64,000 bases of DNA, taken from Shigella phage Sf18. The position numbers were made by a program, and so were the translations under genes. The DNA lies in the sequence record MF158044; one strand, written 5' to 3'. Shown piece by piece: positions 3,564-29,300 of this stretch. Numbering within the stretch: position 1 is the first letter of the stretch; each line of letters opens with the position of its first letter. A model generated the notes under the pieces. The model was not told the origin of the DNA and ran no database searches. It was given only the letters and a program-made list of their open reading frames with translations.

Positions 3564-5708
3564 ATGGTTAAAGTACAAATTATTAAGAAAGACGGTTCAC
3601 TGGAAAACCCAAATGTAAATAAAATCGTCGAAGCAGTTACCAAGTCAGCTAATAGAGTTGGCTACAAAGAGTTACCACTAGAAGTTATCCATGCTCTTGA
3701 ATCAGCCTTTATGAGACTGCTTGTCAGAGCAACTAATCAGAATGCTATGCTCATCTCTGTAGATGATGTTCACAGTATTGTGGAAGGAACTCTGGCAGAG
3801 GTAAACCATGAAATCTATGAGTCATATTCAACCTACAGAAACTATCGTAAAGAGGTTGCACAGAATTGGGATGAACTTTACCAGAAAACTAAAGACACAC
3901 TCTTCTTAGGTGACCGTGAGAATGCTAACTTTGATAGTAGCTTAATCTCTACAAAAGGTTCAATCATCCGTGGGTATCTGACAAAAGAAATCTTTAAGCA
4001 GTATCACTTGACACCAGAAGAAGCAAGTGCTATTGAAGATGGTTTCATTTATATCCATGACTTAAGAGATTTAATCTTCGGTGGTATTAACTGTTGCTTG
4101 TTTGACATTGGAAGCGTCTTGAAAGGTGGTTTTGAAATGTCCGGCATTGAATACTGCGAACCAAAGTCTGTACTTTCAGCTTTACAGGTTATTGGTGACG
4201 TTGTACTCTCAGCAACTGCACAGCAATTTGGTGGATTTACTATCCCAGAGATTGACAAGGTTCTTGTGCCATATGCTAAGAAGTCTTTTGAGTATCATCT
4301 GGAGAAAGCAAAGCAGTATAATATCACAGGGAGAGGTGGTGCATACCACTATGCTAAAGAGCAACTCCAGATTGAACTGACCCAAGGTTTCCAATCTCTG
4401 GAAATGAAGCTAAACACTGTCCCTTGCAGCCGTGGTGACTTTGCATTTACAACATTAACATTTGGTTTACTTGAACCAGATATGGCTAGTGAAGACAACC
4501 GATTGCAATTTATGATTGCGAAGACTATTCTTGATGTGAGAATGAATGGTCAAGGTAAGTCTAAGAAGCCTGTTGTATTCCCTAAACTGGTTTACATTTA
4601 TGATGAGACAAGACATATGCTAGACCCTTGGCAGGGAACTCTTTATGACAAAGCTATTGAGTGCTGTTCTAAAGCTATGTACCCAGACTTCTTAAGTGTT
4701 TCTGGTCATGGTTCTGTTGCAGAAGCTTTTGAGCGTTCAGGTGCAGTCATCTCTCCAATGGGTTGCAGAGCTTTCTTATCACCATATTATGATGAAGATG
4801 GTAAAGAGTTCTACACAGGGCGAGCAAACATTGGTGCAGTATCTCTTAATCTGCCAATGATTTACAAGTATTCTGAAGAGAATTGTTTAGACTTCTGGAC
4901 AGAACTTGACAAGTATCTTGAGATGATTAGAAGCTTCCATAAAAAACGTTATGAGATGATTGCTAATATGCCAGCAAGCTCTAACCCTCTAGCATTCACA
5001 CAAGGTGGTTTGTATAAAGGTCATAAGAAGCCAACTGACAAGATTGGTTGGGATACTGTGAAATCTTTTACAGCCTCTTTTGGTGTCACTGCATTGGATG
5101 AGTTAACAGTACTTGCACAAGGTAAAAGATTACATGAGTCAGACGGTGATATTGCAAGTAAGGTTTTAAACTACCTGAATGGCAAACTGGAGCAGTTTAA
5201 ACAGGAAGATGGTTTCTTGTATGCCCTCTATGGTACACCTGCTGAGAGCCTTTGTGGTACGCAATTGAAGCAGTTTAGAAACATGTTTGGAGTTGTTAAA
5301 GGTGTATCTGATAAAGAATACTTTACAAACAGCTTCCACATGAATGTTGGTGCAGATATTACACCATTTGAAAAGCAAGACTTAGAAGAACCTTTCTTCC
5401 ATGCTTGTAATGGTGGTCATATCCAGTACGTTCGTATTGCTAATCCAGAGAATCATAAAGCTATTAGGGCTTGTGTGACAAGAGGTATGGGTAAAGGTTT
5501 CTATCAAGGTGTTAACTTTGACTTGGCAATCTGTGAGAATTGTGGTCACCGTCCAAGTGCAGATGTTGAATTGTGTCCTAAGTGCAACTCACACGATATC
5601 TCTGTGATTAACCGTGTTTGTGGTTATCTTGGCTGGACTAAGATTAAAGGTACTTCCAGAATGAATGATGCAAAAATTGCTGAAATTCAGGATAGAAAAT
5701 CTATGTAA
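3564..5708 (+). CDS. nrdD: anaerobic ribonucleoside-triphosphate reductase (class III)
   Basis: ATG with AGGAG RBS (ORF-track start 3474 lies inside terminator); C-terminal glycyl-radical motif RVCGYLG and CxxC...CxxC zinc ribbon. Confidence 0.9.
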   Translation: MVKVQIIKKDGSLENPNVNKIVEAVTKSANRVGYKELPLEVIHALESAFMRLLVRATNQNAMLISVDDVHSIVEGTLAEVNHEIYESYSTYRNYRKEVAQNWDELYQKTKDTLFLGDRENANFDSSLISTKGSIIRGYLTKEIFKQYHLTPEEASAIEDGFIYIHDLRDLIFGGINCCLFDIGSVLKGGFEMSGIEYCEPKSVLSALQVIGDVVLSATAQQFGGFTIPEIDKVLVPYAKKSFEYHLEKAKQYNITGRGGAYHYAKEQLQIELTQGFQSLEMKLNTVPCSRGDFAFTTLTFGLLEPDMASEDNRLQFMIAKTILDVRMNGQGKSKKPVVFPKLVYIYDETRHMLDPWQGTLYDKAIECCSKAMYPDFLSVSGHGSVAEAFERSGAVISPMGCRAFLSPYYDEDGKEFYTGRANIGAVSLNLPMIYKYSEENCLDFWTELDKYLEMIRSFHKKRYEMIANMPASSNPLAFTQGGLYKGHKKPTDKIGWDTVKSFTASFGVTALDELTVLAQGKRLHESDGDIASKVLNYLNGKLEQFKQEDGFLYALYGTPAESLCGTQLKQFRNMFGVVKGVSDKEYFTNSFHMNVGADITPFEKQDLEEPFFHACNGGHIQYVRIANPENHKAIRACVTRGMGKGFYQGVNFDLAICENCGHRPSADVELCPKCNSHDISVINRVCGYLGWTKIKGTSRMNDAKIAEIQDRKSM

Positions 5709-20053: not shown

Positions 20054-20107
20054 TAAGTTACCCAGATAAACATAGACAAGCCCTCCAAAGTTTGAGTTTA
20101 AAATCTC

Positions 20108-20310
20108 AGGTAAGGGGGGCTTTTTCATTTTAAATTTGTGCAGGTATAGTTGCATAGAACTCTGGACAGATTTCTTTAGCTGAACTCCAAAGGGAAAATT
20201 CATTTCAAATTTGTGCAGGTTTAGACTCCAAAGGGATTTTTCATTTTCAATCTGTGCAGATGCAGTTGGACTCCAAAGGGAAAATTCATTTTCAGTTTGT
20301 GCAGGTAGGT
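20108..20310 (+). repeat. four tandem ~40-50-bp direct repeats ending in TTGTGCAGG
   Basis: Units at ~20108, 20186, 20224, 20268 share CTCCAAAGGGAAAATTCATTTT-A--TTGTGCAGG; C-rich tract follows at 20323-20352. Confidence 0.6.
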
Positions 20311-20479
20311 AGCTGTAGGAAACCAGCCCCACCACCCCCTCTTACTCCCCTTCCTCCCAAAAGTCAAGAGAAAAATTTGTAGAGAACTCAAAAATAATTC
20401 TTGACTAGATTCCTGTTTTAGTGTATCCGCATACGTGCGTTCTATTCACGAAGCATCGAAAATATTTTTAAAAATTTTG

Positions 20480-20508: not shown

Positions 20509-20557
20509 TTGCATCAACGGGAAACATCCCAACAATCCTAAACTGGAGAATCTAAAA

Positions 20558-20764
20558 ATGTTATATCAACGTGAGTTAATGATTGTTGACAACAACAAAA
20601 CAAATAAACGTCGTTTCTATATGCTAATTTGTGATGTTTGGCAACGTATCTCAGAAAAGGATTTTGATGAATATGTTGATACGTCAATCAGGTCTGATTG
20701 TTATTTGACAACTCACACAAGGCATTACACAAGGCATACAGCCATTTATTACTATAACGTTTAA
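20558..20764 (+). CDS. hypothetical small protein (cassette gene)
   Basis: ATG preceded by conserved CCTAAACTGGAGA leader and TTGACT-N17-TAGTAT promoter. Confidence 0.5.
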   Translation: MLYQRELMIVDNNKTNKRRFYMLICDVWQRISEKDFDEYVDTSIRSDCYLTTHTRHYTRHTAIYYYNV

Positions 20765-20775
20765 AAGGCTTGACA

Positions 20776-20934
20776 ATGGTTAAAGAAAACGATGTAATAC
20801 AATACAAAGATTTAGACGGATACCCAAAAATTGGTAAAGTCTTCTATCTCTATAAGTCTGCTATGGGTAATGATTGTATAGCCCTTACAAATGGCGACAA
20901 AATAACCATGAAAGATTTTATAAAAATTAATTAA
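20776..20934 (+). CDS. hypothetical small protein (52 aa)
   Basis: ORF below ORF-track cutoff, weak RBS, fills gap between cassette genes. Confidence 0.3.
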   Translation: MVKENDVIQYKDLDGYPKIGKVFYLYKSAMGNDCIALTNGDKITMKDFIKIN

Positions 20935-20943
20935 ATAAAGTGC

Positions 20944-20972
20944 TTTACATGGGGTTTAAAAGCTAGTATCTT
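20944..20972 (+). promoter_or_regulatory. type-A cassette promoter with embedded dyad
   Basis: TTTACA-N17-TATCTT; GGGGTTT...AAGCCCC inverted repeat spans spacer and -10. Confidence 0.5.
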
Positions 20973-21023
20973 AAGCCCCCAGATAAAGAGCTTTACCAAC
21001 AATCCTAAACTGGAGAATCTAAA

Positions 21024-21404
21024 ATGAAATATCGTGCGCCTAAATTTATCAACAAAGAAAACTTTCGTAGTATCTTAGAGGAAACTATGAAAGAAAACTT
21101 CAAAGGAAAAATAATTGTTGTTCACGCTTACAATTTTAAGTATGATGTTAATGGTAACCGTATTAACCACTACAAAGCTACTATGCTTGACGGTACATTA
21201 TCCGGTGAAAAAGCTATCATAAATGCTATTGCAGGACGTGGTAAAACTGTGATACGCTGTGAAAAAAGACGCTATCAAGGCGGTAAATATGGGTATGAAG
21301 ATGCAATGTACCATCTTGATAAAATGGGGTATGATGTAGAGAAAGCTGGAGTATCTCAAACTATTGGTAGTGACGGCTACGTTACAGTTTTCAAAATTAA
21401 CTAA
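21024..21404 (+). CDS. hypothetical small protein (cassette gene)
   Basis: Preceded by type-A cassette (promoter with dyad) and CCTAAACTGGAGAATCTAAA-ATG leader. Confidence 0.55.
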   Translation: MKYRAPKFINKENFRSILEETMKENFKGKIIVVHAYNFKYDVNGNRINHYKATMLDGTLSGEKAIINAIAGRGKTVIRCEKRRYQGGKYGYEDAMYHLDKMGYDVEKAGVSQTIGSDGYVTVFKIN

Positions 21405-21413
21405 ATAAAGTCC

Positions 21414-21442
21414 TTTACATGGGGTTTATAGTTAGATAAGAT
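21414..21442 (+). promoter_or_regulatory. type-A cassette promoter with embedded dyad
   Basis: TTTACA-N17-TAAGAT; same cassette recurs before genes at 21845, 22442, 23449, 24263, 25506, 25789. Confidence 0.5.
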
Positions 21443-21495
21443 AAGCCCCAGATAAAGAGCTTTACCAAACAATAACCTAAACTGGAGTATCAAAA

Positions 21496-21753
21496 ATGGC
21501 TACTATCAAAAACATCATTGTATCTGCAAAATCTCGTGATGACGCTCGCGCAACTGCTAAAAAACTAAATGGTAAAGTGGTTGACAACGGAAAAGAATCT
21601 GCTGTAAGATGGGGCGTAAAATGTGATAAGGAAATTACTTTAAAACGTAGTTCCTATGACCTTTTCAAAGGTGTAAAAGCAATCGGTAGAACTAACGTCT
21701 ACACGAAGAAAGGTTATAAAATGCACTTATCATTAACTGACAATTTAATCTGA
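21496..21753 (+). CDS. hypothetical small protein (cassette gene)
   Basis: Type-A cassette upstream. Confidence 0.55.
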   Translation: MATIKNIIVSAKSRDDARATAKKLNGKVVDNGKESAVRWGVKCDKEITLKRSSYDLFKGVKAIGRTNVYTKKGYKMHLSLTDNLI

Positions 21754-21844
21754 TAAAGTGCTTTACATGGGGTTTATAGTTAGATAATATAAGCCCCAGA
21801 TAAAGAGCTTTACTAACCAATAGTCCTAAACTGGAGAATCTAAA

Positions 21845-22357
21845 ATGAATTTTGTTGAAGCTACCTTTGAAGTCCAAAAAGAAAAATTCACTATCATCTA
21901 TGAAGCTGTTAATATTTGTGAAGCATCCCATTGTGTGGAGAATTGGAAGTTTACCGATGAGCACAAAGGCGGGGTTACAATCAAACTTAAAAATCCAGAG
22001 CGTAACGGGTACAAATATGCAATTCCACAGCATTACAGCCTTTCACAATTGATGAGTGATTATGCTAAACAAGGCCGCGAAAATCCATCTATAGAGGCTT
22101 ACAAGAGCTTACAAGATGAATTACAAAGAGATTTAGAGGCTAACAGCTACGTGCTATTTGCAAAGGTAGAAGATAAAGAAGGTAATACAGTATTAAATAG
22201 CTTTTCTCTTGCTTATGGCTTCGATTGGTGCTATCTTGACGGGGAAGATTTAGATTCACGATTAGAAGAGGAAGTGTCGAACTCCGATGGAGAATCTGAA
22301 GTAATGGAACGTTTAGAAGCCTTGAAAGATTCTGTTATGAATATCTTTAATATCTAA
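21845..22357 (+). CDS. hypothetical acidic protein (cassette gene)
   Basis: Type-A cassette upstream; acidic C-terminal half. Confidence 0.55.
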   Translation: MNFVEATFEVQKEKFTIIYEAVNICEASHCVENWKFTDEHKGGVTIKLKNPERNGYKYAIPQHYSLSQLMSDYAKQGRENPSIEAYKSLQDELQRDLEANSYVLFAKVEDKEGNTVLNSFSLAYGFDWCYLDGEDLDSRLEEEVSNSDGESEVMERLEALKDSVMNIFNI

Positions 22358-22441
22358 AAGTGCTTTACATGGGGTTATCAAGTTGATAAGATAGCCCCAG
22401 ATAAAGAGCTTTACAAACAATCCTAAACTGGAGAATCTAAA

Positions 22442-22738
22442 ATGTTTATTGCCGCAAACGTTAGAACTAAATTAAGCCAGCTATTAAGTAATATCCAATT
22501 CATTGAATCTATGCGCCGTACATCTGAAGCCGTAGAGTGGTATCATGGAAAGATTAACAAAAAGGAAGTAATAATTTGTGTATGGAACTTTTGTAAAGAA
22601 TACAAAAAACCATTGCTTCAGGTTGATATCTATGATAACACTAATAAGTCATCGATTAAGACCACTAGAGATATGGTTGATTCATATGAAATTAGTCACA
22701 CTGGTAAACTATTCCACAAAGGTAAAAACAAATGTTAA
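22442..22738 (+). CDS. hypothetical small protein (cassette gene)
   Basis: Type-A cassette upstream. Confidence 0.55.
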   Translation: MFIAANVRTKLSQLLSNIQFIESMRRTSEAVEWYHGKINKKEVIICVWNFCKEYKKPLLQVDIYDNTNKSSIKTTRDMVDSYEISHTGKLFHKGKNKC

Positions 22739-23079
22739 TCACATACGTTGCAATTTTTATCTCTATTGTGGCGCTCTATAAAGCCTTACAAGCGCACAGT
22801 ATAGCTAATAAGGCACTTACAAGGGATTTAAAAATAAACCTTGTACGGGGCTTTCTAGAGCGTTTAAGCTTAGAACAATTGAAACGCTTAGAGATGAGCT
22901 TTCGATTCAAAGCAGAAACATACCGGATTGATAACATCCTAGACGGGGATTTTAAATTAATCAGTGATTATGACATACTTCTTGAGTCAATTCAAGATAT
23001 AAACCTGAAAGATTATTATATCGTGATAGCGCAAGAAATTAATAAAAAAGAGCTTGCAATGCAGAATCAAAACAAGTAA
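22732..23079 (+). CDS. hypothetical membrane protein
   Basis: N-terminal TM helix; 3' end (LAMQNQNK-stop) plus downstream promoter duplicated at 26434-26480. Confidence 0.45.
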   Translation: MLITYVAIFISIVALYKALQAHSIANKALTRDLKINLVRGFLERLSLEQLKRLEMSFRFKAETYRIDNILDGDFKLISDYDILLESIQDINLKDYYIVIAQEINKKELAMQNQNK

Positions 23080-23113
23080 AGTATTCATCAACGGTACTAA
23101 TGACGGTCGAACT

Positions 23114-23359
23114 TTGAACGTAACTTTAAAACACTATATAGACGGTGTATTAAACTTTGAAGAGTTAAGAGCAGAACAGCACCTATTAGATTGGCAAGTA
23201 GCAGGTTTACAAAAAACCGCCACAGGATATGGAAAGAAAATTCCTACATCTTGGAAAGTTCGATACCTTGGAAAGTTACGCAGAATTTATCAAGATGTTT
23301 ACAGTAATAGCGGCGTAAGTTACATTATTGTTAGTGGTAAAAAATTGTATTTAGTCTAA
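23114..23359 (+). CDS. hypothetical protein, possible TTG-initiated or decaying gene
   Basis: Long ORF downstream of TTGCAA-N17-TAAAGT promoter has no in-frame ATG; TTG at 23114 tentative. Confidence 0.25.
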   Translation: MNVTLKHYIDGVLNFEELRAEQHLLDWQVAGLQKTATGYGKKIPTSWKVRYLGKLRRIYQDVYSNSGVSYIIVSGKKLYLV

Positions 23360-23448
23360 TAAATTGCTTTACATGGGGTTATCAAGTTGCTAAGATAGCC
23401 CCAGATAAAGAGATTTATCTAAAACTAACCTAAACTGGAGACTAGAAA

Positions 23449-23856
23449 ATGACTAATGTTAATCACAAAGAAGTTGCAATTTTGAAAGCACGTTTGACCA
23501 TTAACCGCATCAACATTGTAACATCAGCAGCACCAGACGAAACACTACATAATATCATCGGTAAAATTCAGGGCGCAGTAGTAGACACAAAACAGCTTAA
23601 AGAATCCTTGCAAGATGTAGCAGCAGGAGCTATAATTGACGGTGCTCAATATGAGATGAAGGAAATGCTGTCAAAGTCAAAAGTAATGAATAAAGAACTT
23701 GACTTGAAAATGTTTAGATTTGCTGTTAAAGTGTGGCTATGTGTTGATTTTGATGCAAACTTTGCAATTGCTGATTTCTTTGCAACATGGTTACAGCGTA
23801 ACTTACCGGTTGAAGTTTTCCGTGAAATCTGCGATGCAATTTATTCAGAAATTTGA
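23449..23856 (+). CDS. hypothetical protein (cassette gene)
   Basis: Type-A-like cassette upstream. Confidence 0.5.
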   Translation: MTNVNHKEVAILKARLTINRINIVTSAAPDETLHNIIGKIQGAVVDTKQLKESLQDVAAGAIIDGAQYEMKEMLSKSKVMNKELDLKMFRFAVKVWLCVDFDANFAIADFFATWLQRNLPVEVFREICDAIYSEI

Positions 23857-23885
23857 TTGACACTGCAAAAGCATAGTAGTAAAGT
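23857..23885 (+). promoter_or_regulatory. type-C cassette promoter
   Basis: TTGACA-N17-TAAAGT followed by conserved leader. Confidence 0.5.
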
Positions 23886-23928
23886 ACTCATCAGACAACG
23901 AAACAACCCTAAACTGGAGATTCAAAAG

Positions 23929-24177
23929 ATGAAAACAAAAACACAACTCAAAAGTATGATGAAAAATGGTTTTCTCGATGATGTATACAAAGAATGTAGA
24001 CGGTATGGGGAAATAAAAAGTAATTTCGATTTTGAGTACACGTATACAGTGAATTTCAAAACTAACGAACGAAAAACAGACCTTGTAACTGAGATTCAAA
24101 TAGAATACAAAGATTTATTATGGACTTTTGAACTTGTAAAAGGTTTATGCACATCGGCAGGTTATAAAAACATCTAA
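23929..24177 (+). CDS. hypothetical small protein (cassette gene)
   Basis: ATG after CCCTAAACTGGAGA leader; ORF-track TTG start 23857 is the -35 element. Confidence 0.5.
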   Translation: MKTKTQLKSMMKNGFLDDVYKECRRYGEIKSNFDFEYTYTVNFKTNERKTDLVTEIQIEYKDLLWTFELVKGLCTSAGYKNI

Positions 24178-24262
24178 AAGTGCTTTACATGGGGTTTATA
24201 GTTAGATAAGATAAGCCCCAGATAAAGAGCTTTACCAACAATCCTAAACTGGAGAATCTAAA

Positions 24263-24820
24263 ATGAAATGCTTTCATGGTACTACACAAGAAAACTTTGT
24301 AAACCTTATCAATGGCGGTGATAAACCATCAGGAGCTTGGAATTGCTCTGATATGGATGGATGTTTTTACGTCTACCCTGTTAACAAGTTCTATGATGTA
24401 GAGAATCTGGATGACGAACAAATCACAGATGAAGGTATTAGAAACGCGCTTGATAGCGCAAGCATTACAGCAGCCTATCAAATGAAGTCACAAAAGCTTG
24501 TTATCTTGGAACTGGATATTCCAGAAGATGATTTACAAGATGACTGGAGCTGTGAGAACATGAGCGACGTAGCAAGCTTTACAGAATATTTCGATAAAGA
24601 ATGGATTAAAAAGGTTTACACAACTGAATTTAATGCTATGTATGCGCCTTTCTTTGTCCCTAACCTAAACAATAGAAATTTAGGATATGTACCAGACGAA
24701 CTACGCAACATTGCAGAAATAGTCCAACGTAGTGATGGGATGAGCAATGTATATTGTGATATCTTTGACACCATGCAATGCAACGTAACAGAAACGGTTA
24801 TAAACGACTTAACAGCATAA
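24263..24820 (+). CDS. hypothetical acidic protein (cassette gene)
   Basis: Type-A cassette upstream; strongly acidic. Confidence 0.55.
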   Translation: MKCFHGTTQENFVNLINGGDKPSGAWNCSDMDGCFYVYPVNKFYDVENLDDEQITDEGIRNALDSASITAAYQMKSQKLVILELDIPEDDLQDDWSCENMSDVASFTEYFDKEWIKKVYTTEFNAMYAPFFVPNLNNRNLGYVPDELRNIAEIVQRSDGMSNVYCDIFDTMQCNVTETVINDLTA

Positions 24821-24883
24821 ACCATAGAATCACACCAGTTCACTAGAAAAGCCCCGCACAGGGGCTTACAAGAGGCTTAAAAC

Positions 24884-25114
24884 ATGCTTACTACAATCTA
24901 TCTTATTCTATCTATCTGCAATGGTTCACAGTGTGACTTTAAAGGTTTAGAAGAGTTTACAGGTAGCGAAAATAATGCTATTGTTGCCTGTCAGATAGCA
25001 AGGCAAGACTACCCAACATCGGATGATATCCAATGTTACTATAAGTCAGAAGATGATGAAGGTATTTACTTTGATAGTGTGAATGGTGAATATGAGATTC
25101 TTATAGAAAAGTAG
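24884..25114 (+). CDS. hypothetical small protein, possible signal peptide
   Basis: AAGAGG RBS; hydrophobic N-terminus LILSICNG; perfect hairpin upstream. Confidence 0.45.
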   Translation: MLTTIYLILSICNGSQCDFKGLEEFTGSENNAIVACQIARQDYPTSDDIQCYYKSEDDEGIYFDSVNGEYEILIEK

Positions 25115-25143
25115 TTGACACTGAAAACGCAAGAAAGTAAAGT
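25115..25143 (+). promoter_or_regulatory. type-C cassette promoter
   Basis: TTGACA-N17-TAAAGT then GGGAAACATCCC dyad and CCTAAACTGGAGA leader. Confidence 0.5.
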
Positions 25144-25192
25144 ATTCATCAACGGGAAACATCCCAACAATCCTAAACTGGAGATTCAAAAA

Positions 25193-25414
25193 ATGTTGCA
25201 AGTTCTTAACGTAAAAACCATTGATTTTAAATTCTCAAATGTTCGTCGTACCTATTTACAGCCGTTTAGTAAACCTGTTAGGATTCCCAACGATGACGCT
25301 AAAAAGTTGATTGATGAAATTCTAGCTAATGGCGGTTATCTGGCTAGTCATAAGCAGTATAATGATGAGGATGGAAGCCTGATAAATGAGTTTACATATT
25401 ATTACTACAAATAA
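25193..25414 (+). CDS. hypothetical small protein (cassette gene)
   Basis: ATG after conserved leader; ORF-track TTG start 25115 is the -35 element. Confidence 0.5.
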   Translation: MLQVLNVKTIDFKFSNVRRTYLQPFSKPVRIPNDDAKKLIDEILANGGYLASHKQYNDEDGSLINEFTYYYYK

Positions 25415-25505
25415 CTAATAAAGTGCTTTACATGGGGTTTATAGTTAGCTAAGATAAGCCCCAGATAAAGAGCTTTACCAACAATCCTAAACTGGAGAAT
25501 CTAGA

Positions 25506-25703
25506 ATGTTATCACTGATGCAAAAACTTTCTACCTTGTGGTGTTTAAAAGGTGTAGAGTGTAACCTTAACATGGAAGGTTCAAAGATAGACCTAAAAAT
25601 AGTATACAATGGAGAAATACTATTCTCACAGAATAGCAGTCATCCACACTTCAAAGATAATGCAATTATGGCCGTGAATAATCTGATGGATAGAATTTAT
25701 TAA
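25506..25703 (+). CDS. hypothetical small protein (cassette gene)
   Basis: Type-A cassette upstream. Confidence 0.5.
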   Translation: MLSLMQKLSTLWCLKGVECNLNMEGSKIDLKIVYNGEILFSQNSSHPHFKDNAIMAVNNLMDRIY

Positions 25704-25788
25704 AGTGCTTTACATGGGGTTTAAAAGCTAGTATCTTAAGCCCCAGAGAAAGAGCTTTACCAACAATCCTAAACTGGAGAATCTGAAA

Positions 25789-26130
25789 ATGGCCTATGTA
25801 ACAATTATCACCGATAAAGAAAATTCGTCATGGTCTACCCAAGTTAACGACAAAATGAAACCTATGCAGTGTCTCAAGTACTTTGAGCAATGGAACAGGG
25901 GAGAAGATGTAAGCCCCTTTCAAGTGATGCAGATTGTACATGTTGACAATGAAGGGAATAAAACTACCCTTAACACTGAATACTATGCTACACGTTTCGA
26001 AACTCGCAAATCAGCTATGCAGGAGTTAAGAGAAAAGGGATATAGTCACATTGCCGCGCTCATTTGGTCTGATTTGCTTAAAAAACAGTCATTAACCTAT
26101 GTTAAGCCAGAAAAAATCTTTATAAGCTAA
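25789..26130 (+). CDS. hypothetical protein (cassette gene)
   Basis: Type-A cassette upstream. Confidence 0.55.
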   Translation: MAYVTIITDKENSSWSTQVNDKMKPMQCLKYFEQWNRGEDVSPFQVMQIVHVDNEGNKTTLNTEYYATRFETRKSAMQELREKGYSHIAALIWSDLLKKQSLTYVKPEKIFIS

Positions 26131-26327
26131 TCAACAACTTATAAAAAATCTTTTGAAAAACTATTGACAATGCCCCTTGACAAGTGTAACTTTGTTCGAG
26201 GGGGTTTATCTAAAAGGGGTTAACTTAATAGATTCTTTATAGATAAGCGTAAAAAGTACTTGCAAAGGTCTAATCATATCTATATAGTATCTTCAAAAGG
26301 CAACTTCCTAAACTGGAGAATCACTAA

Positions 26328-26468
26328 ATGTTAGATATCATTAAAAACCCTATCCTTTGCGGTATGATTGTTTCTGTTGTGTTGCCATTAGCAATGCTCA
26401 TCATTGGTGAAATCTCAGATAAACTTTTTGATAAAAAACTACTTGCAATGCAGAATCAAAACAAGTAA
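26328..26468 (+). CDS. hypothetical membrane mini-protein (46 aa)
   Basis: ATG after CCTAAACTGGAGA leader; TM helix; C-terminus identical to that of 22732-23079. Confidence 0.35.
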   Translation: MLDIIKNPILCGMIVSVVLPLAMLIIGEISDKLFDKKLLAMQNQNK

Positions 26469-26532
26469 AGTATTCATCAACGGGGAGGGAGACCTCCCCA
26501 CTAAACAAAATTCCTAAACTGGAGAATCTAGA

Positions 26533-27060
26533 ATGAATAAGTTTAATGCTGTTAATGCAATCCGTAGCCGTGAAGTGATGAGCAAGCCTTGTAAAGATAC
26601 TTGGGAATTTACCTTAAAGAGCAAAGTTTTTGCAGTTATCACAAAAGGGGAAGATAAGCAGTTTTATGTACACCGACCAAATGTAAAAGCGGTAACAGCC
26701 AACAACTTTATGGGGGCTATTTCTCTTATTCTGAATGATTATATGGCTATAGTCGCAGAAATTCACGAAATGGCTATTAAGGCAACTAAAAACGAGTTAA
26801 ACCGCTTTAAAATGGCTTATGAGCGCTCTATTAAGTCCCATAATCTTTTTATTGCAATCCACTATACAGGCATGTATGCTATGGGAACGGGTAACCAACA
26901 ATACCCACTCTATGAAGTGGAAAACATCTTTACAAGTGACTACCCAACAACTAATTTTAAAATTACGTTAGGGGAAGCATTAAATAGGGGAATTAGGCTT
27001 TACGAACAATCTTTAAAAAACTTAGAAAATTCCCTTGACGAAATCATCACAAATCTATAA
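26533..27060 (+). CDS. hypothetical protein (cassette gene)
   Basis: Type-B cassette (GGGGAGGGA-gac-CTCCCC dyad plus leader) upstream. Confidence 0.55.
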   Translation: MNKFNAVNAIRSREVMSKPCKDTWEFTLKSKVFAVITKGEDKQFYVHRPNVKAVTANNFMGAISLILNDYMAIVAEIHEMAIKATKNELNRFKMAYERSIKSHNLFIAIHYTGMYAMGTGNQQYPLYEVENIFTSDYPTTNFKITLGEALNRGIRLYEQSLKNLENSLDEIITNL

Positions 27061-27120
27061 AGTACTTATCAACGGGGAGGGAATGACCTTCCCCAACAAT
27101 CCTAAACTGGAGACTAGAAA

Positions 27121-27384
27121 ATGAATAATCAAGAAATCACTATCCTGTTACAAATCGGTACTGACAAAGAAGATATCCAACTTTGCAAACGTATTGAAAG
27201 TGATTGGTTCAACGGTGAAATCATCGCAGAATCTTATGAAGTAGTCGGATTCATGAATGGTGAAATTGTAAGCCATTTCGGTTTAACTAAATCTGAAGCC
27301 GTTGCAAAGTATGACGTTTTATCTTGTGAGATTCTTACAAAATACAATGAAAAAAGACTTGCAACTTATGCAGCAATGAATTAA
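27121..27384 (+). CDS. hypothetical small protein (cassette gene)
   Basis: Type-B cassette upstream. Confidence 0.5.
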   Translation: MNNQEITILLQIGTDKEDIQLCKRIESDWFNGEIIAESYEVVGFMNGEIVSHFGLTKSEAVAKYDVLSCEILTKYNEKRLATYAAMN

Positions 27385-27449
27385 TATTACTTTCAACGGG
27401 GAGGGAGACTTCCCCACTAACCTAAATTCCTAAACTGGAGAATCTGAAA

Positions 27450-27701
27450 ATGGCTACTATCCACGCAACTGTTAACAATTTTGGCTTCCATGTATTAGAT
27501 GTTAAATTTGATATGGTTGGAACTGGCGATGTTTTTGGCATGGTTGATATGTGTCTAAAAGCAACTATTCAGGACTACAATCAATCTGAGTGGTTCTGGA
27601 AAGAAGTAAAACAAGAAGTCTTAAAGGATGGCAAATCCTCTTACTATTGGGGTGATTCTCTTATCACGCTTTACTATGAAGTTGACGGCTTCAATAACTA
27701 A
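27450..27701 (+). CDS. hypothetical small protein (cassette gene)
   Basis: Type-B cassette upstream; followed by terminator. Confidence 0.5.
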   Translation: MATIHATVNNFGFHVLDVKFDMVGTGDVFGMVDMCLKATIQDYNQSEWFWKEVKQEVLKDGKSSYYWGDSLITLYYEVDGFNN

Positions 27702-27743
27702 CAAGTCGCCGCAACGGGGCAAATAGCCCCAGACACCTTTACA

Positions 27744-27767
27744 GCCCCTTAGATGGGGCTTTTTTAC
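27744..27767 (+). terminator. rho-independent terminator ending plus-strand small-gene island
   Basis: AGCCCC-ttagat-GGGGCT then TTTTTT. Confidence 0.6.
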
Positions 27768-27769
27768 GT

Positions 27770-29300
27770 CTTCCTAGAATCTTACCATTGATTCGATAGA
27801 ATCTATCCCATACATTTAGAATAATAACTCTATAGCTTACTCTATATCCTCTTATCAAATCAACTTAAATATAAGCCCATAACCCGAAAGGGAAGGGCAA
27901 TCCCTAAAACGCTCTATAACGCTCTATACGGGCTTATCATCTCATCTTAAGCAATCATATTAACCTGCTCTTAAAAGCCCTTTATAGAGCTTTCTAGAGC
28001 CTTAAAAGAATCTTATAAGGGTATAAGCTTTATTATCTCGTTAGTATCTTGTGAATGGTTAAACAGGGGCTTGATAATAGCTTTAAAGTATGTTATGGAG
28101 TCTTCAAAGTAACGTAAAAGAACCTTAAAAGTAACGTAAAAGTTAGCCCCCTTTACATTCTCTTAACAAAATCTTAACAAATGCTACATAGTTATGCTTG
28201 TTAGCCCCTTGTTAAATCCTTGTTAGAGGTATGTTAAGAGCTTGTTAGCCTCTTTGAAGTCCCTGTATAAGCCCCTAGAAAGCCCTATAAAGAGCTATAC
28301 AGGTAGTTGGGGTGTAGTTACTAGGGAGAACCTTAGAAGAGGCTATATAGAGCTATACAGAGCTTTTAAGAGGGCTTTATAGAGAATCACTAAGAAGGGA
28401 AGGGAACTATAGACCAAGAGATAGTGACCATGTTAATAGCTTGTTAAAAAGGTTTAGAACTTGTTAGCACCTTGTTAATTATCTTAACAAAATAACTCTT
28501 AAGATTTAACTATTTAGCAACTTATAAGCAACTTGTTAGACCCTTGTTAGTAGTGTTACAGACTGGTTAAGCTCTTGTTAGTTCTGTTAAGAGGCTGTTA
28601 AGAACTTTGAAGAGATGTTAAGAGCTTGAGAGAGTTGTTAAGAGATTGTTAATGATATTTTAAGATTTTGCAAAGGGGATGTTACAGGGCTGTTTAGGGC
28701 TACCAAGCAGATATACACCCTAAGTAGATATTTTTCAGATTCTCCAAAGACCCTAAAAAGTAACCTACCTAGTCTATTTTATAAAAATTTTATAATTCTG
28801 AATAACTATCTATACACTATCTTATATAAAACAGGAATTAACAGGCTTATAAGATACCTTGTTAGTACCGTGTTAGACCTTGTAGGATAAGCCTAAGAGG
28901 TTGATTCTTAAGAACAACCGAATCAACTAGAAGGGAATACCTGTTTAGTGTTATATAACAGTCTATATAGAGGCTTAGTAATACCTAGTGATTCTGCTAT
29001 ATAGGGTACTATCGTTTACCTAGAGATTAAGATGGCTATAGGGGCTTCTAAGGGGCTAGGAAGAGGTTAGGAAGGTGATTGTATAGGGTTGATTAATGGT
29101 AGGCTTAGAAGGCTTTATAGAGGGCTATATAGAGAGCACTATTTAGGGACTAAGAGGTTATATAGATACTATATAATACTATATAGAGATGATGCTTAGA
29201 GAGGGTGTTTAGAAGGGTATAGATATTTTATCACATATCATGGTGACCCAAGATGAACGGAGTGAATCCCAAATTTTATAAAAATTATAAATTTCGTAAA
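27770..29300. repeat. ORF-free region dense in short direct repeats (TGTTA(A/G) and TATA-N-AGAG families)
   Basis: No ORF of 60 aa or more on either strand; over 20 TGTTA(A/G) copies, many ~11 bp apart (28197-28248, 28563-28654); bounded by terminators. Confidence 0.7.

Follow-up and report, generated by a model that had tools for sequence, protein, structure and literature searches.

The window, that is the whole 64,000-nucleotide stretch of DNA analysed here, comes from a Felix O1-like myophage of the genus Mooglevirus (Ounavirinae) and matches Shigella phage Sf18; across 24 kb it is 98% identical to Sf17. Between positions 20,537 and 27,452 lies an array of 15 small genes, the early, accessory-gene block of Sf18. 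It is tightly packed, with several ORFs terminating in or at the promoter of the next gene, and the six genes tested all fall into PHROG families of unknown function. The genes are preceded by copies of a cassette made up of a sigma-70-type promoter, a G/C-clamped stem-loop and an invariant leader, CCTAAACTGGAGA, which includes a GGAG Shine-Dalgarno sequence and is followed, after 6-10 nt, by an ATG; this is the start codon of all 15 leader-bearing genes. The 15 cassette copies are concentrated in 7 kb, and the rest of the 64-kb window contains no cassette with this leader, of which 0.08 occurrences would be expected by chance.

Two types of cassette can be distinguished. In type A the promoter (CTTTACA..TAAGAT) lies within a long hairpin, the stem-loop being formed around the spacer and the -10 hexamer, while in type B the stem-loop is found downstream of the -10. 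The type A promoters at 21,414, 22,364, 23,368, 24,184 and 25,427 (TTTACA-17-TAAGAT) match the sigma-70 consensus at 9 of 12 positions, and the type B promoters at 23,857 and 25,115 (TTGACA-17-TAAAGT) at 10 of 12. The latter two are stronger paralogues of a variant, TTGCAA-17-TAAAGT, which was read by eye and, with a match at 8 of 12 positions, stayed below the threshold of the promoter scan (9 of 12), which therefore did not list it. All of these are putative promoters, recognised by their match to the consensus. The predicted folding energy of a type A module is -27.1 kcal/mol (z = -4.3) and that of the type B 5' UTR of copy 2, described below, is -19.2 kcal/mol (z = -3.3); the hairpin keeps a constant position across modules and genomes even though stem and loop sequences differ. 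An Rfam scan of the region from 19.5 to 29 kb gave nothing relevant. No T-run trails the type B stem-loops, which therefore resemble hairpins of a 5' UTR more than terminators. Stem-loops at the very 5' end, such as that of the ompA 5' UTR, stabilise bacterial mRNAs against 5'-end-dependent decay, and the geometry here is alike, with the stem-loop about 3-5 nt after the predicted transcription start, so a similar effect on stability may be envisaged; alternatively, the type B hairpins could have their effect on transcripts that read through from upstream.

The features discussed below are these:

20,537-27,452, plus strand: array of 15 small genes, each with the leader CCTAAACTGGAG(A/T) upstream, then ATG, and a promoter of type A or type B
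22,732-23,079, plus strand: 115-aa gene (phrog_4375) with a hydrophobic N-terminal stretch, upstream of site J1
23,039-23,094, plus strand: type B module copy 1, site J1 (repeat family D8); exact core 23,053-23,094; -35 TTGCAA at 23,054-23,059, -10 TAAAGT at 23,077-23,082
23,094/23,095, no strand: deletion junction, where 52 nt of close relatives are missing: GGCAAGATAGAAGCCCCAACAATCCTAAACTGGAGAATCTGAAAATGTATAC
23,095-23,359, plus strand: 5'-truncated remnant of a conserved 90-aa gene (phrog_3436), codons 4-90 in frame from 23,096, stop at 23,357-23,359
23,100-23,117, plus strand: out-of-frame mini-ORF ATG ACG GTC GAA CTT TGA, holding the first AUG on the predicted transcript; Shine-Dalgarno pairing -3.0 kcal/mol
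25,100-25,195, plus strand: diverged third type B cassette, with TTGACA-N17-TAAAGT, a small GGG/CCC hairpin, the leader and an ATG at 25,193; the 18-nt string TAAAGTATTCATCAACGG is held in common, exactly
26,328-26,468, plus strand: 46-aa gene (phrog_7482) with a hydrophobic core, ending ...KKLLAMQNQNK inside module copy 2
26,428-26,535, plus strand: type B cassette copy 2, site J2, intact; -35 at 26,443-26,448, -10 at 26,466-26,471
26,482-26,499, plus strand: stem-loop of copy 2, GGGGAGGGAGACCTCCCC, within the preceding feature
26,513-26,525, plus strand: leader of copy 2, CCTAAACTGGAGA, then the ATG of a 175-aa gene at 26,533

The first-pass annotation of this region had drawn attention to a duplicated 42-nt string, described as a gene end joined to a promoter, and to a downstream gene lacking an ATG, and had explained both by cassette shuffling through recombination. 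The duplication is real: there are exactly two exact copies in the window, with none expected (100 shuffles), though they lie at 23,053-23,094 and 26,442-26,483 and not, as was given, at 23,041-23,082 and 26,439-26,480. When mismatches are allowed the repeat grows to 56 nt (23,039-23,094 and 26,428-26,483, 93% identical); a third copy, 70% identical, lies at 25,100-25,155. Both exact copies do carry the proposed TTGCAA-N17-TAAAGT promoter sequence; the match of the J1 promoter, only 8 of 12, is a counterpoint to the explanation preferred below. Transcription from J1 would start near 23,089-23,091.

The string is indeed a gene end as well as a promoter, closing two different ORFs with ...LAMQNQNK-stop: that of the 115-aa gene, whose last nine codons (ELAMQNQNK) and stop lie inside the module, with its TAA at 23,077-23,079 opening the -10 hexamer, and that of the 46-aa gene, whose homologues in KPS64, Sf13 and Sf17 are annotated as predicted membrane proteins. 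The two genes are unrelated, and they share the tail because both ORFs read the cassette in the same frame as far as the TAA of TAAAGT; it is thus the product of read-in to a promoter and no functional motif. The homologue of the 115-aa gene ends, in KMM4 and SFPB, with a TAG that immediately precedes CTTGCAA, and that of Silverhawkium (gp119) terminates earlier still, ahead of the module, from which it follows that the tail of the 115-aa gene arose by loss of a stop codon, TAG to GAG. A recent duplication of the 42-nt copies within Sf18 is out, both sites holding the module even in the distant Silverhawkium and CHB7. In most genomes J1 and J2 carry common lineage-specific variants (the Sf group has AATGCAGAAT, Michonne and Mordin have AATAAAGAAT, Silverhawkium and CHB7 have AAAGGCAAAT). 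With SFPB and mistaenkt discordant, the idea that both promoter copies evolve strictly in concert was rejected as stated, and the pattern of variants is better accounted for by occasional conversion or mosaic exchange.

Copy 2 continues into a stem-loop, the leader and an ATG, and copy 1 does not: as had been observed, hairpin and leader are missing after it, both being absent before 23,095, where the array rule of leader plus ATG breaks down. Every BLAST alignment to relatives breaks between 23,094 and 23,095, with 51-52 nt absent, colinearity on both sides and no foreign sequence. In some 20 distinct relatives or contigs the gene order is the same and the hairpin, leader, GGAG and ATG are intact, followed by MYTTN(D/N)G... 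In Sf18 the stem-loop is gone, together with the leader and its GGAG Shine-Dalgarno, the ATG and the first eight coding bases of the 90-aa gene. The deletion starts at the 5' base of the stem-loop, and its junction shows no microhomology (0 nt). The junction string was not found among GenBank phages, IMG/VR, JGI metagenome contigs or GTDB genome contigs, and the deletion is carried by one deposited sequence of one isolate.

The remaining 265 nt of the gene do not differ at all from the intact alleles of L017, L020 and L022; compared with Moogle there are 43 nucleotide differences, which amount to only eight amino-acid changes. Against the phrog_3436 profile the remnant aligns over positions 4-90 of 90 (E = 5e-48), positions 1-3, including the initiator methionine, being deleted, and it is a member of that family, though an incomplete one. 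It was deposited as Sf18_gp78 (ATE86352.1), with 101 aa counted from a TTG at 23,054. That protein, with its altered N-terminus, is a singleton among about 15 billion sequences; neither the exact 101-aa form nor the 81-aa form that would start at the TTG at 23,114 is present in the contig index, the 101-aa form being identified as ATE86352.1 by homology search. A Pfam search of the 90-aa protein gave no match, and PHROGs label it "unknown function". AlphaFold predicts a confident all-beta fold (pLDDT 81), for which comparison with the PDB found no significant match (best E = 0.23, TM < 0.45). Frameshifted alleles of the gene occur in two other contigs of about 87 kb (P0041 and P0042), and in the Felixounavirus Bas63 roughly two-thirds of the genes are non-essential (PMC11482910); the 90-aa gene would be a dispensable accessory gene.

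The initiation signals left to the remnant are weak. All 15 canonical leaders pair with the anti-Shine-Dalgarno sequence at -5.9 to -6.4 kcal/mol, while the values for the TTGs at 23,054 and 23,114 are -0.9 and -2.5 kcal/mol, levels reached by 44% of all positions. The J1 promoter itself probably still fires, giving a transcript that would start about 5 nt before the junction. Such a transcript would lack both a ribosome-binding site and an in-frame AUG, so that the gene is most likely translationally silent, the remnant probably going untranslated in Sf18. The explanation we favour, and hold to be probable, is that the 52-nt deletion at the J1 cassette removed the start signals and has left the 90-aa gene silent. 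Sf18_gp78 would then be a very recent pseudogene, and its deposited TTG start is almost certainly mis-called, an annotation artefact. In this it resembles other mis-called phage starts, where the annotator has extended to the nearest upstream NTG, and ordinary 5'-truncated pseudogenes, in which the frame is kept while the ribosome-binding site and ATG are gone; we see no material difference from these.

Could the gene nevertheless be translated from a non-canonical start? As the first-pass annotation stated, the ORF ending at 23,359 has no in-frame ATG and the TTG at 23,114 is in frame, and its view that the canonical start is absent also stands, the leader, GGAG and ATG all being deleted; the ORF is open further upstream, to the TTG at 23,054 that serves as the deposited start. 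Use of 23,054 would give 101 aa with a new 14-residue N-terminus and use of 23,114 would give 81 aa, in which case ribosomes might re-initiate once they had terminated at the upstream stop or at the end of the MTVEL mini-ORF. From 23,054 on the reading frame is open and otherwise intact, residues 1-4 of the family are predicted to be disordered (pLDDT < 50), so that a changed N-terminus might be tolerated, and both the ATG at 23,100 and the TTGA overlap at 23,114-23,117 exist in the sequence. We nonetheless consider such a start unlikely. The pairing at all three sites is at background (-0.9, -2.5 and, for the mini-ORF, -3.0 as against -6.4 kcal/mol for a canonical leader), and the GAG before the TTG at 23,054 is just 1 nt away from it; this TTG is moreover the first three bases of the J1 -35 box, so transcripts from the J1 promoter omit it. 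Starting at 23,114 drops residues 1-9, replaces residue 10 and cuts into the first predicted strand (residues 9-18). The mini-ORF, whose TGA overlaps the in-frame TTG at 23,114, consists of bases that are ordinary coding sequence in all relatives, and the arrangement is probably coincidental. (The ORF is open for 41 nt 5' of the junction and shows no further damage, a counterpoint to the idea of a silent gene in that weak non-canonical initiation is possible.) A programmed +1 frameshift out of the 115-aa gene, yielding a fusion protein, is hardly credible: the truncated ORF does overlap the end of that gene by 26 nt (23,054-23,079) in the +1 frame, but neither a slippery heptamer nor a stimulatory Shine-Dalgarno or structure is present in this stretch, TTGCAATGCAGAATCAAAACAAGTAA, AAG-TAA-A allows no re-pairing in the +1 frame, and the overlap is itself a product of the deletion. 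The fusion of the 115-aa gene with the remnant was rejected for want of a slippery site.

As to how the leader was lost, the first-pass annotation had held that an intact ATG in the same arrangement in related genomes would speak for a sequencing difference and against decay, and every relative examined shows just that. This points to a change seen only in Sf18, be it a genuine deletion or an error in the sequence, rather than to recombination between cassettes. That the 42-nt copies or their cassettes recombined, joining a foreign upstream gene to the ORF and removing the leader, is highly improbable, even though exchange at cassettes does cause gain and loss of genes in the array and the J1 and J2 promoter alleles are mostly of one class within a genome, which implies exchange. 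In all relatives examined for gene order J1 is flanked by the same two genes, the 115-aa gene and then the 90-aa gene, so the idea that shuffling had joined a different gene at this site has to be given up; exchange between direct copies would delete or duplicate the intervening 3.4 kb, a segment present once; and the junction falls outside the repeat, in unique coding sequence, without homology. Because the deletion comes from a single record of one isolate, an artefact of assembly or of the stock has to be reckoned with, the true Sf18 genome holding the 52 nt and the deposited record having lost them. In favour of this, the deletion was found in a single genome, what is left of the gene matches intact alleles exactly, and the lost stretch begins with a G/C-rich stem-loop and includes a leader found 15 times in the genome; in the analogous cassettes of T4-type phages, stem-loops are reported to block sequencing reactions (PMC2839356). 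Against this, the endpoints lie in non-repeated sequence without homology, where collapse of a repeat would give a different junction, the remaining 14 cassettes of the same record are intact, and the sister phage Sf17 has two similar small deletions at the same module positions, which means that such deletions recur in deposited genomes of this lineage. An error of this kind seems quite unlikely to us. As judged from these comparisons, then, J1 carries a recent, Sf18-only deletion, assembly error being less likely and cassette shuffling not the cause. It is ordinary phage genome wear that will not surprise a phage genomicist, and we infer that it came about by replication slippage or by breakage at the hairpin.

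Shuffling does take place elsewhere in the array, and to that extent the earlier proposal was sound, though it did not make the start-less gene. Gene content between cassettes varies among relatives. Sf14 lacks the three genes at about 21,027-22,356, and its single module there is a chimera of the flanking Sf18 modules at 20,938 and 22,356; the loss, to go by that chimera, is a crossover inside one cassette. The cassette array thus accounts for the large differences in gene content found here among phages that are otherwise nearly identical.

Three independent small deletions, one in Sf18 (52 nt, at J1) and two in its sister phage Sf17 (30 nt at J1, 45 nt at J2), occur at the base of the module stem-loop, each with one endpoint inside the same 6-7-nt stretch and with a microhomology of 0-1 nt. 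Each would disable part of the control region of an accessory early gene, those of Sf17 the promoter and that of Sf18 the translation signals. The probability of such clustering by chance is about 0.01-0.02, a rough, post-hoc figure based on three events only. It is conceivable, though doubtful, that the 5' base of the stem-loop (CAAC/GG/GG/A; CAACGGGG), beside the presumed transcription start, is a hotspot for small homology-free deletions. Were that true, hairpin-directed breakage would be a fast way to tune or silence single early genes, and might serve, for example, to evade a host defence that recognises the product of such a gene.

The closest known counterparts of these cassettes are the promoter-early stem-loops (PeSLs) of T4-like phages (Arbiol et al., 2010, PMC2839356; Comeau et al., 2014, PMC4122927). 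Both are short, repeated intergenic units combining a sigma-70-like early promoter with a G/C-rich stem-loop, extending from the upstream stop codon to the Shine-Dalgarno and start of the next gene, clustered in plastic regions before small genes of unknown function, and divisible into subclasses by the position of the stem-loop relative to the -35 and -10. In Sf18 the hexamers are spaced 17 nt apart, within the 16-18 nt expected of such a cassette, and, as in PeSLs, the stem-loop is stable, the repeats lie in a plastic region and recombination between cassettes leads to gain or loss of whole genes (Sf14 versus Sf18). The lineages differ, however, Sf18 belonging to the Ounavirinae and not to the T4-like phages, and its cassettes have no sequence similarity to the described PeSLs; they also possess an additional, strictly conserved 13-nt leader. 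For PeSLs, promoter and terminator activity and mini-circles have been shown experimentally; the Sf18 promoters are predicted from sequence. The resemblance, as far as this comparison goes, is one of architecture and behaviour and not of family membership. With the early array of a Felix O1-like phage composed of PeSL-like promoter/stem-loop/leader cassettes, this manner of accessory-gene shuffling extends to another subfamily.

Direct repeats, which as in Sf18 lie between small early genes, were reported for the genome of Felix O1 (Whichard et al., 2010, PMC3185647) as repeats only, with no functional or evolutionary reading and no gene-end overlap or deletion described. The 57-bp Felix O1 repeat, CTTTACATGGGGCTTAAAAGTCTGTAAAGTAAGCCCCAGATAAAGAGCTTTACCACT, is the counterpart of the type A module, and the 39-bp repeat, TTGACACTGG...ACACATCAAC, that of the type B promoter, the Sf18 copies having diverged.

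The window belongs to a Felix O1-like myophage of the genus Mooglevirus. Its bases 1-24269 are 98% identical to Shigella phage Sf17, and the region from 21.5 to 27.5 kb gives mosaic matches to many Mooglevirus and Suspvirus genomes, with only one record covering at least 80% of it in a single stretch. From 20537 to 27441 the small-gene array here has 15 copies of the leader CCTAAACTGGAG(A/T), all of them on the + strand (0.08 copies expected by chance), with an ATG 6-10 nt downstream of each copy and a module of one of two types, A or B, upstream. The elements discussed are as follows.

Type A module: AAAGTGCTTTACATGGGGTT...TAAGATAAGCCCCAGATAAAGAGCTTTAC, with TTTACA-N17-TAAGAT within a long hairpin
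Type B module: TTGACA/TTGCAA/TTGACG-N17-TAAAGT-ATTCATCAACGG, a G/C-clamped stem-loop, and the leader
22732-23079: 115-aa ORF (phrog_4375), ending in copy 1 of a 42-nt repeat
23053-23094: copy 1, at J1, the cassette site after the 115-aa gene; promoter hexamers TTGCAA (23054-23059) and TAAAGT (23077-23082), 17-nt spacer
25100-25155: third repeat copy, 70% identical
26328-26468: 46-aa ORF (phrog_7482), ending in copy 2
26442-26483: copy 2, at J2, the cassette site after the 46-aa gene

On folding, the type A hairpin gives -27.1 kcal/mol (z = -4.3) and the 5' UTR of copy 2, which is type B, -19.2 kcal/mol (z = -3.3). Genes of the array adjoin or overlap the next predicted promoter: the stop codons at 23856 and 25114 lie immediately 5' of a -35 hexamer, those at 23079, 26468 and 27060 provide the TAA with which a TAAAGT -10 box begins, and the stop at 27384 likewise opens TAATAT, taken as the -10 box of the 27352-27387 module. 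A "gene end plus promoter" shared between sites is accordingly how this array is normally built and does not indicate a recent duplication. The 87-aa gene at 27121-27384 is a third gene ending in a related promoter, CTTGCAA-N17-TAATAT (window 27352-27445), with a stem-loop and leader after the 27352-27387 promoter that share 94% identity with their copy 2 counterparts; promoter-embedded gene ends are thus a general feature of the array.

The exact 42-nt repeat reported in the first-pass annotation does occur twice in the window (0 expected by chance), though its copies had been placed 12 and 3 nt away from their true positions; allowing mismatches, it extends to 56 nt at 93% identity. As had been claimed, it supplies the final codons and stop of two different ORFs, which are unrelated, together with a promoter. 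It is the promoter half of the type-B module, matching the consensus at 8 of 12 positions, under the promoter-scan threshold; the paralogous promoters at 23857 and 25115 match at 10 of 12. Both the repeat and the missing start downstream of it are real, and the explanation of the repeat is an ordinary one.

In the relatives, J1 and J2 both carry the module. The homologue of the 115-aa protein in Silverhawkium and CHB7 (gp119, 109 aa) ends upstream of the module, which is fully intergenic, and that of KMM4 and SFPB has its TAG stop immediately 5' of CTTGCAA. The Sf group, Moogle, Michonne, Mordin and SUSP1 have GAG at the position of this stop codon and read nine further codons, ending at the -10 box TAA. 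In every lineage the 46-aa gene terminates within the module (for example ...KKLAKANQNK in Silverhawkium). The LAMQNQNK ending shared by the two proteins arises incidentally, from two ORFs that run into one promoter sequence in the same frame. The J1 and J2 promoter alleles are usually of one class per genome (AATGCAGAAT in the Sf group, AATAAAGAAT in Michonne and Mordin, AAAGGCAAAT in Silverhawkium and CHB7), and are discordant in SFPB and mistaenkt. Strict concerted evolution is not favoured, given these two discordant genomes; the distribution of alleles points to occasional exchange between the sites.

The ORF ending at 23359 indeed lacks an in-frame ATG, and hairpin and leader are missing after copy 1. 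It is open upstream as far as TTG 23054, and its translation from 23054 to 23359 is exactly ATE86352.1, "hypothetical protein Sf18_gp78 [Shigella phage Sf18]", which identifies the window as Sf18 DNA. Every relative has the 115-aa gene, a spacer of 55-99 nt (58-59 nt in the Sf group) and then a 273-nt gene whose product, MYTTN(D/N)G(R/N)TLNV..., has 90 aa and belongs to phrog_3436. Comparison of gene order, as the first-pass annotation had proposed, gave this same order with full hairpin, leader, GGAG and ATG before the 90-aa gene in all 12 GenBank relatives checked, and in nine of the ten contigs shown with an identical 115-aa protein, the tenth stopping short of the gene. All BLAST alignments to the window are interrupted at 23094|23095, where 52 nt, GGCAAGATAGAAGCCCCAACAATCCTAAACTGGAGAATCTGAAAATGTATAC, are absent from Sf18 (51 nt relative to locus L015, whose leader is 1 nt shorter, like those of Sf15 and Sf13); there is no microhomology at this junction.

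The first-pass annotation had attributed the missing start to cassette shuffling. Shuffling was not the cause: on both sides of J1 every genome is colinear, and the junction falls within unique sequence. The junction string was not found in GenBank phages, IMG/VR, JGI metagenomes or GTDB genomes, and the protein of the 101-aa ORF forms a singleton cluster. The 265 nt of the start-less remnant are identical to three intact alleles, and its 43 nt differences from Moogle cause only 8 amino-acid changes. An assembly error is less likely; judged from these alignments, the missing start is due to a deletion seen only in Sf18, and the remnant is a real gene under purifying selection, very recently damaged. 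Frameshifted alleles of the 90-aa gene (P0041 and P0042, homologous to window 23096-23356) are carried by other phage contigs, of ~86-88 kb; their reading frame breaks down in the GGAAAGAAAATTCC run that follows GYGK, and either this gene is repeatedly damaged or the homopolymer run is error-prone.

Pairing of Shine-Dalgarno (SD) and anti-SD sequences ranges from -5.9 to -6.4 kcal/mol over the 15 canonical leaders, against -0.9 for TTG 23054, -2.5 for TTG 23114 and -3.0 for the out-of-frame ATG 23100; a value of -2 kcal/mol is attained by ~44% of all positions in the region. TTG 23054 coincides with the start of the -35 hexamer, whose first three bases it forms, and so is not on transcripts from that promoter. 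TTG 23114, the start suggested earlier, is in frame; its use would remove residues 1-9, replace residue 10 and cut into the first predicted beta-strand (residues 9-18). ATG 23100 opens a 5-codon ORF whose TGA overlaps TTG 23114, an overlap treated as coincidence because the relatives use the same bases as ordinary coding sequence. The inferred J1 transcript is unstructured on folding. No slippery site was found for a frameshift fusion of the remnant with the 115-aa gene. Most likely, by its sequence, the remnant is transcribed but untranslated. Because the gene that follows (23449) is served by a type-A cassette of its own, a polar effect is not expected.

Shuffling does occur within the array. 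Sf14 is without three genes at ~21027-22356, and its single module there matches the Sf18 module 20938 on the left and module 22356 on the right, with the switch point inside a shared CCCCAGATAAAGAGCTTTAC; whole-cassette differences are also seen among other relatives. At window 23893-24177, the 135-aa gene is followed by an 82-aa gene (ATG 23929) without any nucleotide match to its 82-aa positional counterpart in the closest relatives, where the alignments have gaps; it looks like a cassette replacement, with a type-B module on its left and a type-A on its right. KPS64 (L005, MK562502.1) has, on the reverse strand at ~4876-5130 of the oriented locus, a 127-nt tandem duplication spanning the end of the 46-aa gene and the entire type-B cassette (window 26405-26530), a further private rearrangement at J2.

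Sf17, the closest relative, has deletions of 30 nt at J1 and 45 nt at J2, each removing the promoter (L008, MF327004.1, 2299-2380 and 5615-5690, corresponding to window 23053-23094 and 26442-26486). The former takes out the stop, and gp127 reads across hairpin and leader to end 2 nt before the next ATG. These two deletions and that of Sf18 J1 have 0-1 nt of microhomology, and each has one endpoint within CAACGGGGA, the 5' base of the stem-loop, which may be a structure-linked deletion hotspot, a pattern of three events noticed post hoc.

In T4-like phages, promoter-early stem-loops (PeSLs) combine sigma-70 early promoters with a stem-loop, extend from the stop codon of one gene to the SD and ATG of the next, cluster where the genome is hyperplastic and bring about modular shuffling (PMC2839356; PMC4122927). 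The Sf18 cassettes resemble them in architecture and behaviour but differ in phage lineage and sequence; for these reasons, and since their function is predicted from sequence, we call them PeSL-like only. The Felix O1 genome paper lists 57-bp and 39-bp direct repeats, uninterpreted (PMC3185647), which are the counterparts of types A and B, respectively. About two-thirds of genes were non-essential in a knockout screen of the Felixounavirus Bas63 (PMC11482910), with which a tolerated loss of the 90-aa gene is consistent. What is new is confined to the recognition of PeSL-like cassettes in Ounavirinae and the possible deletion hotspot.

At the left border, a ~480-nt non-coding stretch immediately upstream of the first array cassette holds four copies of a ~43-nt unit (20103-20306; consensus about GACTCCAAAGGGAAAATTCATTTTCARTTTGTGCAGGT), possibly with a regulatory or origin-like role; a C-rich tract comes next, at 20325-20360. 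At the other border (window 27743-28560), a strong intrinsic terminator, AGCCCCTTAGATGGGGCTTTTTT (27743-27765), closes the array. Beyond the terminator lie at least 800 nt, apparently non-coding and rich in short repeats (CTTGTTAG, CTATA(C/T)AGAGC, and aaaagtaacgtaaaag twice); as several relatives' records begin or stop nearby, a genome terminus or packaging region may lie here.
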